Source: Candidatus Aquidulcis sp. (GTDB lineage: Bacteria; Chloroflexota; Anaerolineae; UBA4142). Taken from it: a DNA stretch of 64,000 nt. Location: positions 43,349 to 107,348 of the forward strand of contig DYJA01000011.1 in NCBI GenBank assembly GCA_020723345.1. The letters run 5' to 3'. Position 1 is the stretch's first letter. Each line of letters begins with the position of its first letter. A program made the translations under genes and the position numbers. The notes beneath the pieces were generated by a model that was not told the origin of the DNA, did no database searches, and worked only from the letters and a program-made list of their open reading frames with translations. This document shows positions 1 to 5,864 of this stretch, piece by piece.

Positions 1-1316
1 TTCAGCGCAAACGTATCGTACTGACTGCGATGCGCTTCATCTGCCATCACGATGATATTCGAGCGTGGGGAGATTTCGGGGTAGAGACGACCCGCCGGGT
101 CGTCTCTACGCGTGTGGAATTTCTGAATCAGCGTAAAGACATAGCGATGGTCTTCGCCCAACAATCGTTTGAGATGTTCGCCGCTATCGGCGCGCACATC
201 CTTGGGGTCTTCAATCACCGCAGCGGTGCGGACAAAGTTTTTGTAAATCTGATCGTCGAGGTCGTCGCGGTCGGTGACGACGACAAAGGTGTAATTCCCG
301 CCGAGTTTGCGGAGAATCTTTTGCGAGAACATCACCATCGAATAACTCTTGCCGCTGCCCTGGGTGTGCCAAAAGACGCCGAGTTTTCCACGATTCTTGC
401 CGATGCGTTCGACAGCGGCAATCGCGTTGTTCACGCCGAGGTATTGATGGTTCTTGGCGACGAGTTTACGTAAGCCGCCCGTGCTTTCTTCAAAGAGGAT
501 AAAGTTTTCGACGAGGTCGAGCAAGCGCGTGTGTTCGCACGTGCCGCGAATCAGCGTTTCCAGCGAGACGACGCCTCGCTCGCCTTCCGAGTTGATGCGC
601 TTCCATTCGGCAAAGTGGTCCCATTCGGCGGTGATGCTTCCGATGCGGCTGTCGCTTCCGTTCGAGAGAATGATGAACGCGTTGTACCAAAAGAGTTGGG
701 GGATTGTGTTCTTGTAATCGCGCAGATTGTCGTGGTAGGCGTCTTCGACATCTTTTTGCGGTGCTTTCAACTCGACAAAAACGAGCGGAATGCCATTGAC
801 AAAACCAATGAGGTCGGCGCGGCGTTTGTACATCTCGCCCGTGACCCAGAATTGCGACGCGAGGAAATAGTCGTTCTGGGCGGGATCGTCCCAGTCAATC
901 ACGCGAATCGTTTCGGCGATGTCTTGTTCATCGTCGTCGCTTCGCACCGTGACCTTGACGCCGTTCTTCAGCAAACGATACACATCGCGATTGGCGGCGG
1001 CAAGCGTCATCGCGCTGCGGTCGCGCGTCAGTTCTTCGACGGCAGCGTCAATCGCATCGCTGGGCGCGTTCGGATTGAGACGACGCAACGCATCGCGCAG
1101 ACGCGCCACCAGCACAACCTCGGCGGACGTTTCGCGACCAACGTAGAGACGTGTCGGTGACACGTCTCCGAGACGACCCGCGTAGAGACGTTCCGCCGGA
1201 ACGTCTCTACCGAATATTTCATCGTAACAATTTGCGGTCTCCCAACCCAATTGCGCAAACAGCGCAATCGCGGGTTGTTCCACCAAGGCGTCTTCGGTGT
1301 AATCGTTGGGGATCAT
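1..1316 (-). CDS. hsdR: Type I restriction endonuclease R subunit (HsdR), N-terminal part; 3' end lies beyond the left window edge
   Basis: Absent from the ORF track because it runs off the edge. My own minus-strand translation starts at ATG 1316-1314: MIPNDYTEDALVEQPAIALFAQLGWE... It has Walker A GVFWHTQGSGKSYSMVMF (GSGKS codons 359-345) and DEAH box IIVMADEAHRSQYD (DEAH 41-30). The plus-strand ORFs at 30-1160 are shadows of this gene. Confidence 0.9.
   Translation of the reverse strand, partial: MIPNDYTEDALVEQPAIALFAQLGWETANCYDEIFGRDVPAERLYAGRLGDVSPTRLYVGRETSAEVVLVARLRDALRRLNPNAPSDAIDAAVEELTRDRSAMTLAAANRDVYRLLKNGVKVTVRSDDDEQDIAETIRVIDWDDPAQNDYFLASQFWVTGEMYKRRADLIGFVNGIPLVFVELKAPQKDVEDAYHDNLRDYKNTIPQLFWYNAFIILSNGSDSRIGSITAEWDHFAEWKRINSEGERGVVSLETLIRGTCEHTRLLDLVENFILFEESTGGLRKLVAKNHQYLGVNNAIAAVERIGKNRGKLGVFWHTQGSGKSYSMVMFSQKILRKLGGNYTFVVVTDRDDLDDQIYKNFVRTAAVIEDPKDVRADSGEHLKRLLGEDHRYVFTLIQKFHTRRDDPAGRLYPEISPRSNIIVMADEAHRSQYDTFAL
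81..109. repeat. REP-like 29-nt perfect palindrome GTAGAGACGACCCG-C-CGGGTCGTCTCTAC, located inside the hsdR ORF
   Basis: 14-bp arms read directly from the sequence. The hsdR frame stays open across it (..FHTRRDDPAGRLYPEISPRSNIIVMADEAH..). Confidence 0.85.
1143..1210. repeat. Cluster of REP-like palindromes (GTAGAGACGTGTC-GGT-GACACGTCTC, a partial unit, then GTAGAGACGTTCCG-C-CGGAACGTCTCTAC) inside the 5' part of hsdR
   Basis: Read directly. Translated in the hsdR frame it gives ..FGRDVPAERLYAGRLGDVSPTRLYVGRETSAEVVL.. with no stop. Confidence 0.85.
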
Positions 1317-1321
1317 TGGCG

Positions 1322-1903
1322 TTACATCCGCAAACCAACGGGATTATCCTTGTCCTTGTCCCAATTGGTGGGGTTATTGATGATGTACGCGCGCACCGCA
1401 TCCAACGCGCGTTCGTTGCGAATAATTTCGTCGTGGAATCGTTCTTGCCAATCGAAATCTCCGTGTCCTTCCGCGCGGATGCGTTTGGTGCAAACCGATT
1501 TGATTTGCCCGATGATCGAGCCAAGGGAATTGGGTTGCAATCCCGTAGAGACGTTTCGGTGAAACGTCTCGGATCGGGTTGTCTCGGAGACGGGTCGCCG
1601 TGTAGAGACGGGTCGCCGACCCGTCTCTACGGTGTGCGTAATCCAAATAATTCCGTGCAAATGATTTGGCATCACAGCCCATTCGTCCAATTGGACATTG
1701 GCGCGCACCTGCGGCGTCTTTTGCCATTCATCCGCGACAATGTCACCGATGGGTGACAGGTTCATCTCGCCATTGACCACGTCGCCAAAATAACAAACGC
1801 GATTTTTAGCGCAGATGGTGACGAAATACAATCCAGGGGATGAATAATCCCAACCGCGTAACCGCGTGGATTCGATGCGATATTTGTTTTTGAACAGGGT
1901 CAT
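1322..1903 (-). CDS. REP-associated tyrosine transposase (RAYT, IS200/Y1-like HUH enzyme)
   Basis: ORF 1322-2020, trimmed to ATG 1903-1901 (MTLFKNKYRIESTRLRGWDY...). HUH motif MPNHLHGII. C-terminal RFHDEIIRNERALDAVRAYIINNP (YIxxNP Tyr motif). Flanked and interrupted by REP palindromes. The upstream 39 codons of the track ORF are REP sequence. Confidence 0.85.
   Translation of the reverse strand: MTLFKNKYRIESTRLRGWDYSSPGLYFVTICAKNRVCYFGDVVNGEMNLSPIGDIVADEWQKTPQVRANVQLDEWAVMPNHLHGIIWITHTVETGRRPVSTRRPVSETTRSETFHRNVSTGLQPNSLGSIIGQIKSVCTKRIRAEGHGDFDWQERFHDEIIRNERALDAVRAYIINNPTNWDKDKDNPVGLRM
1545..1630. repeat. REP-like palindrome cluster inside the RAYT ORF (GTAGAGACGTTTC-GGT-GAAACGTCTC ... GTAGAGACGGGTCG-C-CGACCCGTCTCTAC)
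   Basis: Read directly. It is translated in frame as ..ITHTVETGRRPVSTRRPVSETTRSETFHRNVSTGLQ.. between the HUH motif and the LGSIIGQIKS segment. Confidence 0.85.
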
Positions 1904-1919
1904 TGTTTCCGCCCCCTCC

Positions 1920-2028
1920 GTAGAGACGTTTCGGTGAAACGTCTCTATCACCAATATGACGCAACGTGTCGCCGCGTAGAGACGCGCCGTTGGTGCCTCT
2001 CGGAGACGTGTCACCGACACGTCTCTAC
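1920..2028. repeat. REP-like palindrome cluster filling the hsdS-RAYT intergenic space
   Basis: GTAGAGACGTTTC-GGT-GAAACGTCTCTA at 1920-1946 and GGAGACGTGTC-ACC-GACACGTCTCTAC ending at 2028. The terminal GTCTCTAC supplies the hsdS stop codon (CTA at 2025-2027 = TAG on the minus strand). Confidence 0.85.
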
Positions 2029-3200
2029 GACACCCGAATATCCAATCCTTCCACCTCCACCGCGCCCGAAATCAACTTGGGCAACAGCAGGTCGCGGGTG
2101 CGGCGGAGGTTGATATTCTTTTGACCCAGGATTTCTTTTTCAACAAAGAAGTCTTTGGCGATACTGTGGAATAAATCAAGCGTTCTTTTGGGAGGGATGA
2201 GAATGTCTGCTTTCTCAAAATCTGACGCGCTAACGGCTGGATAAGCCGCACCCGTAGCGTGATTTGTAAGATAACCTACAAAGTCGTCTGTGGTCATACT
2301 TTGATACAAATAGGTGTAGGGAACTTGTTTTGCGCCAATCACTGCAAATCCTGTAGATACAATCAAATTGGGGAGTGGCTTGAGAATCAGCGAAAAAGAT
2401 TTCCGATTGGGGCGAACCATTGACCAGATAATGTCGCCATCTTTTACGATGCGTCGCGCTCTACCTGGTGCATCTACAAAAGGCATTAGTTGTATCGTTT
2501 CGATTTGTCCTGTTGTCACAGATGCGATATCAACGTAGTTGATTTCTATTGGCTCTTCACCTTTTTTGACGCTTGATTTGTTGACTTCAGCAATCTCACC
2601 CAGTTCTACAATCTCCCACCCCTCTGGCACTTGCCCCAACCGCGAATTTACCATCCGTACTTTTGCGTGACCTGGGAAACGGAAATTCACAAACCACTCG
2701 CGGTAGAGCATCTGCGCCATCTCTTCCAGAATCTTGATGCGGCGCGTGTTGTTCTCGATGAGGTCGTCGTAGGCGGAGAGGATGGCAGCGATTTTGCGCT
2801 GGGTAGAAAGAGACGGAATCCGTACTGGCAACAGATGAAGAGCGTTTCTATTCAACCCTGGAACTGCGGCGGCAGCACTTTGAACACCAAGTCCGAGCGT
2901 GCCAAGAAAATACTTGACGAATAGAGGATCGTTGCCTTTGAAATCTTTGACAAACAAGGTTGTGTTATGGGGCCAAAAATCTTCTTTGACAAAGTAGACT
3001 TCGCCCAACGTACCGTATCTGCCTGTGACAACTCCTGGGCCATCGACTTTTGCCGTATCGTGGTATCCAGTAATTCCAGATGATGTTACTATCGGTACAT
3101 TTCCCTCGCGGCGATCTCGTTCAGGAAGATCATAACCTCTCTGCAATGTTAGCACATCACCAAGTTTGGTTTTTGTCCAAATCCTTGATTTCGTTTTCAT
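2025..3200 (-). CDS. hsdS: Type I R-M specificity subunit (HsdS)
   Basis: 391-aa ORF. Central conserved helix IPSLSTQRKIAAILSAYDDLIENNTRRIKILEEMAQMLYREWF and C-terminal RRTRDLLLPKLISG, with two variable target-recognition halves. Lies between hsdM and hsdR. Confidence 0.9.
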   Translation of the reverse strand: MKTKSRIWTKTKLGDVLTLQRGYDLPERDRREGNVPIVTSSGITGYHDTAKVDGPGVVTGRYGTLGEVYFVKEDFWPHNTTLFVKDFKGNDPLFVKYFLGTLGLGVQSAAAAVPGLNRNALHLLPVRIPSLSTQRKIAAILSAYDDLIENNTRRIKILEEMAQMLYREWFVNFRFPGHAKVRMVNSRLGQVPEGWEIVELGEIAEVNKSSVKKGEEPIEINYVDIASVTTGQIETIQLMPFVDAPGRARRIVKDGDIIWSMVRPNRKSFSLILKPLPNLIVSTGFAVIGAKQVPYTYLYQSMTTDDFVGYLTNHATGAAYPAVSASDFEKADILIPPKRTLDLFHSIAKDFFVEKEILGQKNINLRRTRDLLLPKLISGAVEVEGLDIRVS

Positions 3201-3260: not shown

Positions 3261-3941
3261 TCAACTTCTCTCCGAATCAGTCTGCGCGAACCATAGGTTG
3301 CTCAATCGCCGCGCCTCTGCCTCGCAGAATGCTTTGACCTGTCCCCAACTCACTGGCGCGAGCAGGATGGGGTCTTGCTGTTGGTCGGCAATCGAGAAAT
3401 CTACGAGCGCGGTCAGCAGGCGCATTCGCACACCGCGCGAATAGGAATACTTGTCCTCCCAACGCGCCACGAGTTCGTCCAGCGGAACGTGGGGCGCGAC
3501 GAAATAAACGTCGTAGAAATCCTTGCGCATACCGCGCCCCATGAGCGCATCCAGTTTCATCAGCCCAACGTCCATCAGCCCCGCGATCTCGACCCCACTG
3601 ACCGAATCGGTCGGCGCGAGCAGCGGATACCCGTAGGTAAAGTAACTCATCGCGAGTCCGTCCACTTCGATCACCAAACCCAGAGGCGAATCTTGCAAAA
3701 TCGTCACCGCATGGGCGCGGCGCAGTTCTGTCACAATGCTGCGGCGTAAATCATCCGTCAGATTCTCGATGTTGGCAAACAGGTCGAGGTCTTGGGAGAT
3801 CCGATGACCCAAACGGAGCGCGAGCGCGGTACCGCCGCCAAGATAGAACGGATGCAATAGTGGCATCGTACCCAGGATCGCCAATAACTCTCTTGTTTTA
3901 GGAACCACAGCTTGCCAATGCGGCGCGGCTAGTGTTGCCAT
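3261..3941 (-). CDS. Nucleotidyltransferase AbiEii/AbiGii-family toxin-like protein
   Basis: 226 aa. Motif FYLGGGTALALRLGHRISQDLDLF is typical of the AbiEii/DUF1814 NTase fold. Overlaps the upstream small gene by 13 nt. Confidence 0.8.
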   Translation of the reverse strand: MATLAAPHWQAVVPKTRELLAILGTMPLLHPFYLGGGTALALRLGHRISQDLDLFANIENLTDDLRRSIVTELRRAHAVTILQDSPLGLVIEVDGLAMSYFTYGYPLLAPTDSVSGVEIAGLMDVGLMKLDALMGRGMRKDFYDVYFVAPHVPLDELVARWEDKYSYSRGVRMRLLTALVDFSIADQQQDPILLAPVSWGQVKAFCEAEARRLSNLWFAQTDSERS

Positions 3942-4240
3942 ATTCGTTCACCTTGCGCGCAATCGCGCAGATCGAAGAACCACGTCCAAAATGTGAATCG
4001 TCGTTTGGGCAAACACCGCCAACCCGCTTGCCGCACCCACTCCGCCAGCCGCTGGGCGCCATAGCGCACAAAGAGCCAGCGCAACTCCAACCAGTCGCCC
4101 CACGCCAACGTTCGCTCGATCACCGTAAACGCGCTGCGCTCGGGGTCGAGGTCTTCCAAGTTGTATTCTTGGAAAAAAGGGCGCAGACTCAATGGGATGC
4201 CTGCTGGCGTCATTTCGAGTTGATCATCCTGACCTGCCAT
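3929..4240 (-). CDS. Small partner protein of the AbiEii-like gene (resembles the DUF6922 family from memory); putative antitoxin/regulator
   Basis: 103 aa. ..[51 protein letters not shown]. Overlaps both the hsdM stop and the AbiEii start, which suggests translational coupling. Confidence 0.45.
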
Positions 4241-5864
4241 CTGTTCTCGTCTCCCGATTCTCTGCGAGCATCGCCACGTTCTCAGCGATTTTCTCCTCCA
4301 AGCCGCGCGCCTCGATATTCAGCGTTTCCAATTCCTCGTTCAATTCTTCCAAGCGTTCCTTGAAATCAAAATCATCGGCGGCTTTTTCGGCAACGCCCAC
4401 GTATCGCCCAGGATTCAAACTCCAACCCTGCGCTTCAATCTCTTTCAGCGTTGCCACCTTGCACAAGCCTGCCACGTCGCGATATTTCCCTTTTGGAAAG
4501 TTCGCTTTCATCAACGCCGCGCTATCGTCGTCGGTTTCGATTTCCTCGCCGCGATACAAGCGCACAATGTTGCCCAGGAATTCGATCTGCGCGGGCGTGA
4601 ATTCGCGGTGGGCGCGGTCAATCTGTTGGTAAATGTTGCGCGCATCAATGAACAACACTTTGCCTTTTCTCCCCTCCCTTGTTACTGACGGGGGAGGGTT
4701 AGGGTGGGGGTGTGCTTTGCCCTTATCCAAGAACCACAACGTGCAAGGAAGCGTAACCGTGTAAAAGAAATTGGAACCGACCGCGACCATCACGTCCACC
4801 ACGTCGGCTTGGATCATCTGCTTGCGGATTTCCATTTCGGACGCGCGCGCGTCGCTCGCGGAATTCGCCATCACGAAACCCGCACGTCCTGTTTTGTTCA
4901 ACGAACTATGGAACAGTTGAATCCACAGGTAATTGGCATTGTCCACCTTTGGCATCCCAAATGGAAAGCGCGCCTTGTCATCCTTGATGCGATCCTTGTC
5001 CACTTTGTCCACATTGAACGGCGGATTCGCCATCACAAAATCGAATTTGCCGACCGCCTTGTGTACATCGTCATAGTACGAATTCGCCTCGCGGATTTGT
5101 CCCGATAGTCCGTGCACCGCCAGATTCATTCGACACAAGCGAACCGTCTCCGCCGTTTTCTCCTGACCGAAAATCGAAATCTCATCGTTCGGCTTGCGCT
5201 TGTGCCGTTCGACAAACGCCGCGCTCTGTACAAACATACCACCCGATCCCGAGGCGGGGTCAAAGATGCGCCCGTGAAACGGCTCGATGATCTCGACAAT
5301 CAATTTGACGATAGAGGTCGGCGTGAAAAACTCGCCGCCCTTTTGTCCCTCGCTCATCGCAAACTTGCCGAGAAAGTATTCGTAGATTTTGCCGAACGCG
5401 TCGCCCTCGATGTCCATCGGGATTTCGTTGAAATCGCGCAACAGTTCGACGAGCGTATTGTTTTCGAGCCGCTTGTACGTCTTGGGCAAAACGTCCTTGA
5501 GTTCTTCGTTCTCCGCTTCGATGGCTTTCATCGCATTGTTGATCGCGGTCGCCACGTCCGCGCCTTCGGGCAAATTGAGCAAGCGATCATAGCGCGCTTC
5601 GTCGGGCATAAACATCACGCCGCGCGCTTGATAATCGTACTTGCTGACCTTGCGGCGTCCCGATGCTTTGCTCTGCAATTCCTTTTGCGCCTGCGCGAAT
5701 TTGTGATCGGCATAGCGCAGAAAAATCAATCCCAGGACAGGGACCGAATACTCGGACGCTTTTAATTTGGAATTGGCACGCAGGCGATCCGCCGCGTCCC
5801 AAAGTCGTTTTTCGATTTCGGTGTTGTTGGCTACCAATCGAATGCTCCTGACCCACAAATACAA
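4224..5864 (-). CDS. hsdM: Type I R-M N6-adenine DNA methyltransferase subunit (HsdM)
   Basis: 546-aa ORF. Motif [12 protein letters not shown] and motif [10 protein letters not shown]. The N-terminus [19 protein letters not shown] is typical. The real start is probably TTG at 5837, preceded by AGGAG. Confidence 0.95.

Follow-up and report, generated by a model that had tools for sequence, protein, structure and literature searches.

In a 64,000-nt stretch of DNA from Candidatus Aquidulcis sp. (assembly GCA_020723345.1, contig DYJA01000011.1, positions 43,349-107,348 of the forward strand; hereafter the window), a type I restriction-modification (R-M) operon very probably carries, in the slot for variable cargo that separates hsdS from hsdR, a subclass 2.4 gene for a REP-associated tyrosine transposase (RAYT) together with eight cognate repetitive extragenic palindromes (REPs) of the double-foot form, GTAG...CTAC. 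Genes were named by Pfam and NCBIfam profile matches, and the minus strand carries every gene of the first 6 kb. An initial annotation had placed a RAYT gene between hsdS and hsdR, and the layout bears this out: hsdS (2025-3200, minus strand; 391 amino acids with two target-recognition domains, Pfam Methylase_S 2.7e-22 over two stretches) is followed by the RAYT gene (1322-1903, minus strand; 193 amino acids, NCBIfam REP_Tyr_transpos 3.9e-15) and then by the 5' part of hsdR (3-1316, minus strand; 438 amino acids before it runs off the window, Pfam HSDR_N 9e-49 and SWI2_SNF2 3e-43). The RAYT stop codon (1322-1324) lies, as was claimed, 5 nt before the hsdR ATG (1314-1316), and the RAYT gene has its own GGAGG Shine-Dalgarno sequence 10 nt before its ATG.

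The gene is a RAYT (TnpA_REP) of subclass 2.4 in the classification of Quentin 2018 (PMC6006769), which corresponds to Group 4 of Bertels et al. 2017 (PMC5581495). A total of 1935 homologues were found. A profile of 46 relatives gave E. coli TnpA_REP (4ER8) as its sole sequence match among solved structures, aligning the HUH strand of the window protein with PEHMH and the WQ...YIxNP helix with WQPRF...YIYINP. The AlphaFold model, with a core predicted local distance difference test (pLDDT) score >90, also had 4ER8 as its best Foldseek match (E 2.4e-6), followed by the TnpA proteins of IS608 and ISDra2. The HUH motif is N80-H81-L82-H83, with both histidines invariant in the 46 relatives and the middle leucine found in many relatives too (search pattern MPNH[LVI]HGI), while W152-Q153 and Y173-I-I-N-N177-P178, which includes the catalytic tyrosine Y173, are invariant or nearly so (W152, Q153, Y173 and N177 fully invariant). 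Alignment with the relatives and 4ER8 shows the HUH and Tyr catalytic residues, and motifs, sequence match and fold match together uphold the proposal that this open reading frame (ORF) encodes a Y1/HUH RAYT. The published traits of subclass 2.4 (NH[IFV]H, WQ and YIxNNP motifs, double-foot REPs, a mean size of 194 amino acids; PMC6006769) are shared by the window protein in size and in its NHxH, WQ and YIxNNP motifs, the difference being that the published pattern lists I, F or V where the window has L.

The REPs cluster tightly around this gene. The foot-bearing 9-mer GTAGAGACG has 11 exact matches in the window, all within 81-2028 (0.26 expected by chance; none of 100 shuffles reached 11), and the motif GAGACG-N11-CGTCTC has 8, all within 84-2025 (0.16 expected). 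Across the rest of the 64 kb, outside 1-2028, there are seven 9-mers with one mismatch, against a chance expectation of 7.7, and none of them forms a hairpin. These counts agree with the earlier statement that at least eight units lie within 2 kb and none elsewhere in the window; the eight hairpin units comprise three of 29 nt, four of a second subtype and one degenerate copy. When folded as single-stranded DNA and compared with shuffles, the units gave z-scores from -2.8 to -7.3. The 29-nt units are U1 (81-109; GTAGAGACG-ACCCG-C-CGGGT-CGTCTCTAC, -15.9 kcal/mol, z -4.9), U3 (1182-1210; TTCCG-C-CGGAA type) and U5 (1602-1630; GGTCG-C-CGACC type), and each is a perfect palindrome that reads GTAG at its foot on either strand. 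The second subtype is, as originally described, GAGACG-TKTC-GGT/ACC-GAMA-CGTCTC; it has a 4-bp inner stem and a GGT or ACC loop, and was located at four sites, U2 (1143-1168; TGTC-GGT-GACA type), U4 (1545-1570), U6 (1920-1948) and U8 (2003-2028, inverted relative to U2), with U7 (1976-2001) as the degenerate copy.

Several units are joined into larger structures. Within hsdR, U2 and U3 enclose a half unit (CGAGACGACCCGC, 1169-1181) to give a compound REP (1143-1210; -25.3 kcal/mol, z -6.0), and within the RAYT ORF U4 and U5 enclose half-unit copies (1571-1601, including GAGACGGGTCGCCG at 1587-1600) to give a cluster (1545-1630; -31.1 kcal/mol, z -5.9). U6, U7 and U8 lie in the hsdS-RAYT spacer, which as a whole folds at -37.1 kcal/mol (z -7.3) and in which U6 and U8 are able to pair into a single long hairpin like that of a REPIN (REP doublet forming a hairpin). 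The spacer had been described as wholly filled by REP sequence, which it is not, as the units cover about two thirds of its 121 nt. The outermost unit, U8, overlaps hsdS and provides the TAG with which that gene ends (CTA at 2025-2027). The RAYT gene is thus flanked by footed REPs on both sides, upstream at 1920-2028 and downstream at 1143-1210. An Rfam search gave two chance-level matches and no others, a full-text literature search for GTAGAGACG returned nothing but primer sequences, and one on small dispersed repeats of cyanobacteria yielded nothing of use.

A Y1 gene bordered by hairpins, with a fold common to the IS608 and ISDra2 transposases, could be read as an autonomous insertion sequence of the IS200/IS605 type that had recently jumped in. 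We consider this extremely improbable, as TnpA_REP (4ER8) ranks first among the matches in sequence as well as in fold, the protein's WQ and YIxNNP motifs place it among class 2 RAYTs (PMC6006769), and the GTAG-footed perfect palindromes also occur in the gene and its neighbours instead of forming distinct left and right ends. Furthermore, the closest related operon (L121) has the same hsdS-stop/GTAG junction as the window, which makes the arrangement old. The insertion sequence was rejected on the RAYT-class motifs, the lack of tnpB at the locus and the presence of a REP within the gene.

In related loci the hairpins likewise accompany the gene, being found with subclass 2.4 RAYT genes in 57 of 85. 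In those 57 loci the foot motif occurs at 2.6-4.0 per kb inside the RAYT gene or within 150 nt of it, falling to 0.2-0.4 per kb at 150-1000 nt and 0.07 per kb beyond 1 kb, where the calculated expectation for random sequence is ~0.008 per kb. The window shows the same pile-up at the RAYT gene, compressed within an operon that has hardly any intergenic DNA. Hairpins clustered in an R-M operon, which would form stable RNA structures, might have been restriction recognition or regulatory sites (GAGACG/CGTCTC resembling a type IIS site) or RNA terminators with no connection to the RAYT, but this is hardly credible. The hairpins follow the RAYT genes in the related loci just described, most of the RAYT loci surveyed have no R-M genes, RAYT genes of many phyla contain the hairpins within their coding sequence, no T-run follows any of the window's hairpins and Rfam gave no match. 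Recognition sites and terminators were rejected since the hairpins track RAYT genes whatever the R-M context and lack T-runs.

Two other arrangements of the hairpins were seen in other genomes. In Calothrix sp. NIES-4105 (L211, 6604-7463) an array of eight hairpins spaced ~120 nt apart lies directly downstream of the RAYT gene. In Nostocales (L002, L009, L036, L042, L061, L072, L077, L116 and others) the 29-nt hairpin sits, in both orientations, within a longer conserved repeat, gaaattaaatatgcgttacccagaaccctt-REP-attc..ggagatgtcta, which looks like a host element resembling a miniature inverted-repeat transposable element.

Dispersed copies were looked for in the contigs of one public subsurface metagenome run, the likely source, that holds 98% of the window's sampled words. 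The 1182-1210 variant was found on 12 contigs with unrelated flanks, with a summed depth of ~118 compared to 8 beside it, and several of these contigs (1-5 kb) had a depth of 8.0-8.5, like that of the window (~8); the other REP variants were single-copy. The 12 contigs, and the several at the window's depth, suggest that roughly ten or more further copies exist, probably in the same organism, with contig depth serving as a rough guide.

Five of the eight units, which the initial annotation had not recorded as such, are coding and in frame, with hsdR holding them at two sites and the RAYT gene at one. In an alignment with 13 relatives, HsdR amino acids 36-58 (GRDVPAERLYAGRLGDVSPTRLY, window 1143-1210) are coded by 72 nt where relatives have 18 (site 1), and amino acids 403-412 (RRDDPAGRLY, window 81-109) by 30 nt, the REP plus 1 nt, where relatives again have 18 (site 2). 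Both length changes are multiples of three, and both inserts replace the sequence of relatives, so the mechanism of insertion was not a simple one. The RAYT segment, amino acids 92-120 (VETGRRPVSTRRPVSETTRSETFHRNVST), is coded by window 1545-1630. The palindrome is open in two frames, VET..VST and RD..RLY, the third having TAG on either strand. All three REP-coded segments are coil in AlphaFold models: that of the RAYT is a disordered loop (pLDDT <50) that links the HUH strand to the following helix, HsdR amino acids 46-53 have pLDDT <50, and HsdR amino acids 397-420 are devoid of secondary structure. The description of REPs as mostly extragenic thus does not hold in the window; in other genomes 107 of 129 copies lay outside long ORFs, and the family overall is mostly extragenic.

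REPs in frame between HuH and Y within tnpA_REP have been published for subclass 2.4 (PMC6006769), and the window gene resembles them in having such a REP in a length-variable segment with short repeats. Among the 120 closest homologues of the window RAYT, 77 have an exact VET-x4-VST straight after the HUH strand, and many of the remainder have a split or degenerate copy. Tandem half-hairpin copies are found in many homologues, for example as eight repeats of VETPRRG type or ten of RNVSTDG type. The internal REP is in the same place and frame in L113, L070, L045 and L033, residues E93, T94, R97, V99, S100 and T101 are at least 90% conserved in the 46 relatives, and more distant relatives show other feet or other frames at this spot. 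Codon use was compared over 15 exact motifs, drawn from 14 genomes whose GC contents span 0.34-0.68. The codons lying wholly inside the REP were nearly fixed (GTA 14/15, GAG 15/15, ACG 14/15, GTC 15/15 and TCT 14/15, compared to background use of 19-30%), and the first codon with its third base outside the REP varied freely. Since synonymous sites inside the REP are fixed within RAYT genes, the constraint, as judged by codon use, is on the nucleotide sequence and not on the peptide. As far as we could find, this fixation at the DNA level has not been published.

One clade of RAYTs (17 rows with support 97, L223, L234, L257, L259, L261, L273 and L276 among those noted) mostly lacks GTAGAGACG, and several of its members code peptides of GATRRVAPT- or GTLQRAPT-type at the internal spot, which we read as a GTGGGGGCG-type foot. 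In that clade, therefore, enzyme and REP foot appear to have changed together.

The 29-nt units of the window share their outer arms and differ in their inner stems, ACCCG/CGGGT, TTCCG/CGGAA and GGTCG/CGACC, all perfectly paired, exactly as was first noticed. A scan of species genomes using the two outer arms alone yielded at least 120 loci, from cyanobacteria, Chloroflexota, Bacteroidota, candidate-phyla bacteria, Acidobacteriota and others. Watson-Crick pairing extended over all five unconstrained positions of the inner stem in 88 of 129 hairpins and over four in a further 30, among more than 60 different sequences. In 69 distinct sequences 89% of cells were paired, compared to 56% after shuffling and 33-45% in slid controls, and the covariation score was 0.90 compared to 0.26 for shuffles, none of 500 of which scored as high.

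The paired changes had been taken to point to selection on the hairpin; the covariation itself stands, and selection is likely to be behind it, though this is not the sole reading, because templated copying of one arm can also change both sides of a palindrome. That the inner stems changed by one arm being copied off the other, through template switching or repair, and not by independent compensatory mutation is a reading we consider less likely than not. Tandem duplications of half-hairpins occur often (in the window at 1169-1181 and 1587-1600, in many RAYT homologues, and in L010, L017, L060, L064 and L113), which implies that arms are being copied, and the hsdR inserts replace relatives' sequence instead of being cleanly inserted. 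However, the same few stem classes, NNCCG-S-CGGNN and NNNC-ACC-GNNN, recur across phyla, fitting inherited and maintained variants, and the single unpaired inner position in 30 of the 129 hairpins is what mutation with subsequent selection or repair would produce. Both processes may operate together.

REPs were also found in hsd genes of relatives, at some of the same places. In a deltaproteobacterium (L202) a REP lies at exactly hsdR site 2 of the window and in the same frame, with an inner stem differing by one compensated pair. In a cyanobacterium (L136) a TTCCG-type REP lies at hsdR site 1, where its sister L140 has none. In L136, L140 and L131, REPs lie in the HsdM loop that follows LWFLDKGK. 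The hsdM gene of L121 contains a REP with no counterpart in the window, and its hsdR has neither insert. The hsdR tree does not support shared ancestry of the same-site REPs (site 2 in the window and L202, site 1 in the window and L136), and a further argument against it comes from L121 and L140, closer relatives that have no insert. The 5' flank in L136 is similar to that of the window, leaving allele exchange open at site 1. REPs in the same loops may reflect either a few tolerated or preferred sites, or REP-bearing patches moving between alleles by recombination. We found no published account of REPs recurring in particular HsdR and HsdM loops.

Further features of these hsdM and hsdR genes were observed. 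The cyanobacterial operons of L136 (1749 and 9602) and L140 (407) have no RAYT gene in the slot, yet carry in-frame REPs of GTAGAGACG type in hsdM and hsdR. The HsdM loop after LWFLDKGK is ~14 amino acids longer in the window than in relatives (4671-4697, minus strand, amino acids ~389-397) and holds an unrelated palindrome, CCCTCCCC-N12-GGGAGGGG, where other lineages carry REPs; in L131 hsdM is split at this loop.

How often RAYT genes occupy type I R-M operons was surveyed from both sides, using 80 loci with related hsdR genes and 80 subclass 2.4 RAYT loci. The hsdS-hsdR junction is tight (at most 41 nt) and free of cargo in ~16 of the 80 hsdR loci, and holds 0.3-5 kb of cargo in ~45, including Schlafen/AlbA_2, DUF4411, Fic, GmrSD, PIN, AAA_21 and Zeta genes. 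A RAYT-like gene, of at least two types, lies upstream of hsdR in 5 of these 80 loci, directly so in three and with one further gene between in L121 and L147. On the RAYT side, the gene lies within a type I R-M operon, and in the operon's own orientation, in 6 of 80 loci, whose hsdR families are 25-61% identical to that of the window. The orders seen were hsdS-RAYT-hsdR, hsdM-RAYT-hsdS and hsdM-Fic-RAYT-hsdS-hsdR. HsdS and HsdR were the commonest families among 134 immediate RAYT neighbours, the others being scattered housekeeping genes, and the hsdR family is spread over bacterial and archaeal phyla. RAYT presence requires 5 changes on the hsdR tree, and the RAYT tree requires 7 for the 8 in-operon RAYTs, which does not improve on shuffled labels. 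On this last count we rejected a clade of RAYTs dedicated to R-M operons, and the trees indicate that entry of RAYTs into type I R-M operons has been repeated and independent. No paper linking RAYTs with type I R-M was found in the literature, and the recurrent presence of RAYTs in these operons appears to be unpublished.

In L121 (3307-4479), hsdS is apparently interrupted by a 390-amino-acid ORF, and a PIN gene stands between the RAYT gene and hsdR. The same hsdS-hsdR slot holds a different RAYT type in L126 (5993-6871), L131 (5999-6844) and L139 (1935-2567), with the N-terminus MTYDPxxHHRRSIRL and 30-36% identity, and ORFs adjoining these genes contain peptides of GQGKPSPY- and GRASPAPT-kind that are REP-coded in appearance.

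The operon order in the window is hsdM, DUF6922, AbiEii, hsdS, rayT, hsdR. The first of these genes (4224-5864, minus strand; Pfam N6_Mtase 9.5e-84 and HsdM_N) is preceded by a near-consensus promoter at 6026-5998 (match 11/12), the sole one of that quality, and the promoter scan of the locus gave no strong promoter in front of either the RAYT gene or hsdR. Because of this single promoter, and as no hairpin has a T-run, the whole gene set is likely to be co-transcribed from the hsdM promoter. An AbiEii-like nucleotidyltransferase gene (3261-3941, minus strand; Pfam AbiEii 1.5e-12) and its DUF6922 partner (3929-4240, minus strand; Pfam DUF6922 6.8e-10) form a second cargo pair (3261-4240), between hsdM and hsdS and overlapping its neighbours, so that this operon has cargo at two junctions.

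A further possibility is that selection has made the RAYT/REP module a working partner of the restriction cassette, uncoupling and lowering hsdR expression relative to hsdM and hsdS, with the often-transferred cassette in turn carrying the RAYT and starter REPs into new genomes. We regard this as unlikely, both in what the module would do to hsdR and in what the cassette would do for the RAYT. The operon counts from both surveys, the prominence of HsdS and HsdR among the neighbours, the sharing of one slot by two RAYT types, the phyletic breadth of the hsdR family, the absence of strong promoters before the RAYT gene or hsdR, and the folding of the spacer at -37 kcal/mol are all in its favour. 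On the other hand, more than 90% of subclass 2.4 genes lie elsewhere, beside housekeeping genes, the slot takes many unrelated cargo genes and is empty in the ~16 relatives without cargo, and the change counts on both trees, like those of shuffled labels, reveal no dedicated lineage. That the module does something for the restriction system is correspondingly improbable. It is also doubtful, if somewhat less so, that type I R-M cassettes are a preferred home and horizontal vehicle for RAYTs of several lineages, which would settle time and again at hsd gene junctions and travel with the cassette from phylum to phylum, seeding REPs in cassette and recipient genome and leaving hsdR expression lowered or uncoupled.

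Our preferred reading, of a RAYT with its cognate REPs in a cargo slot, would work as follows. By analogy with studied RAYTs (we know of no enzyme of subclass 2.4 that has been studied so far), the protein would be an HUH/Y1 single-strand DNA nuclease-ligase that binds the folded hairpin on single-stranded DNA, needs the GTAG foot for cutting, and cuts and rejoins beside the hairpin. Biochemical work on perfect-palindrome REPs found that cleavage requires GTAG and a perfect stem and occurs at CT (PMC8266576). RAYT activity, or hairpin slippage, would then give rise to new copies and half-hairpin duplications, presumably with a preference for sites near its own gene. As the operon has almost no intergenic DNA, copies would survive only if readable in the VET..VST or RD..RLY frame, with a length change that is a multiple of three, and in loops, here those at HsdR amino acids 36-58 and 403-412 and RAYT amino acids 92-120. 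The inner stem would be free to vary while it stays paired, the foot being fixed, and hsdR expression may be affected.

Several observations weigh against this reading. The relation of RAYT to hairpin as its substrate rests on analogy and co-occurrence; the window's other 62 kb holds no further REP copy, so REPs may be few in this genome; no two of the three 29-nt units have the same inner stem, which is not expected from recent copy-and-paste; and the hsdR inserts (30 nt for 18 and 72 nt for 18) are replacements and not clean insertions.

The element's own features are already published, as are in-frame REPs in other genes (PMC3733652). The locus agrees with subclass 2.4 in its double-foot REPs, 5' GTAG and 3' CTAC (PMC6006769), and in wide taxonomic spread; it differs in its type I R-M operon site, which is reported in neither PMC6006769 nor PMC5581495, and in having its REPs confined to 2 kb around the gene within 64 kb. 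E. coli TnpA_REP (YafM, 4ER8, with the REPs of its bacterial interspersed mosaic elements) has HUH and Tyr motifs that align with those of the window protein and GTAG-footed REPs but is ~18% identical and has no internal REP, and E. coli REPs, unlike those of the window, are imperfect, bulged, single-foot and extragenic and number in the hundreds. The intragenic GTAG/CGTC REPs of PMC3733652 and the Rickettsia palindromic elements are similar in being short palindromes inserted in frame into genes of known proteins, adding 10-30 residues, often grouped, and in presumed loops. In PMC3733652, however, the hosts are mainly DNA replication and repair genes, with restriction genes unmentioned, whereas here they are the operon neighbours of the RAYT gene, and lineages unrelated to one another have REPs at matching HsdR sites. 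The REPIN-RAYT systems of Pseudomonas and enterobacteria (PMC3116915) also have an inverted REP pair flanking the RAYT gene and forming one long hairpin (1920-2028 in the window), but they belong to Groups 2 and 3, are single-copy and vertically inherited, and have hundreds of REPINs, whereas the units described here are perfect palindromes on their own and have few copies locally. As in other type I R-M operons with accessory-gene slots, the hsdS-hsdR cargo is varied, and here the AbiEii pair occupies the hsdM-hsdS junction as well; the cargo in this case is a domesticated transposase with its repeats and no recognised defence or toxin gene.

With this locus, RAYT subclass 2.4 gains a further well-preserved member. 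Because constraint on the DNA maintains the internal REP in different phyla, a starter copy of the substrate would travel with the gene each time it is transferred. The same HsdR and HsdM loops hosting REPs in unrelated lineages may be natural insertion-tolerant sites, and as the operon, RAYT gene and REPs fit within ~6 kb they offer a compact system for testing REP mobility. Repeated independent entry into R-M operons would be a concrete horizontal route for a class of genes usually called domesticated and vertically inherited, and if R-M cassettes do prove to be vehicles for RAYTs, this would contradict the view of RAYTs as purely vertical, housekeeping-like genes.

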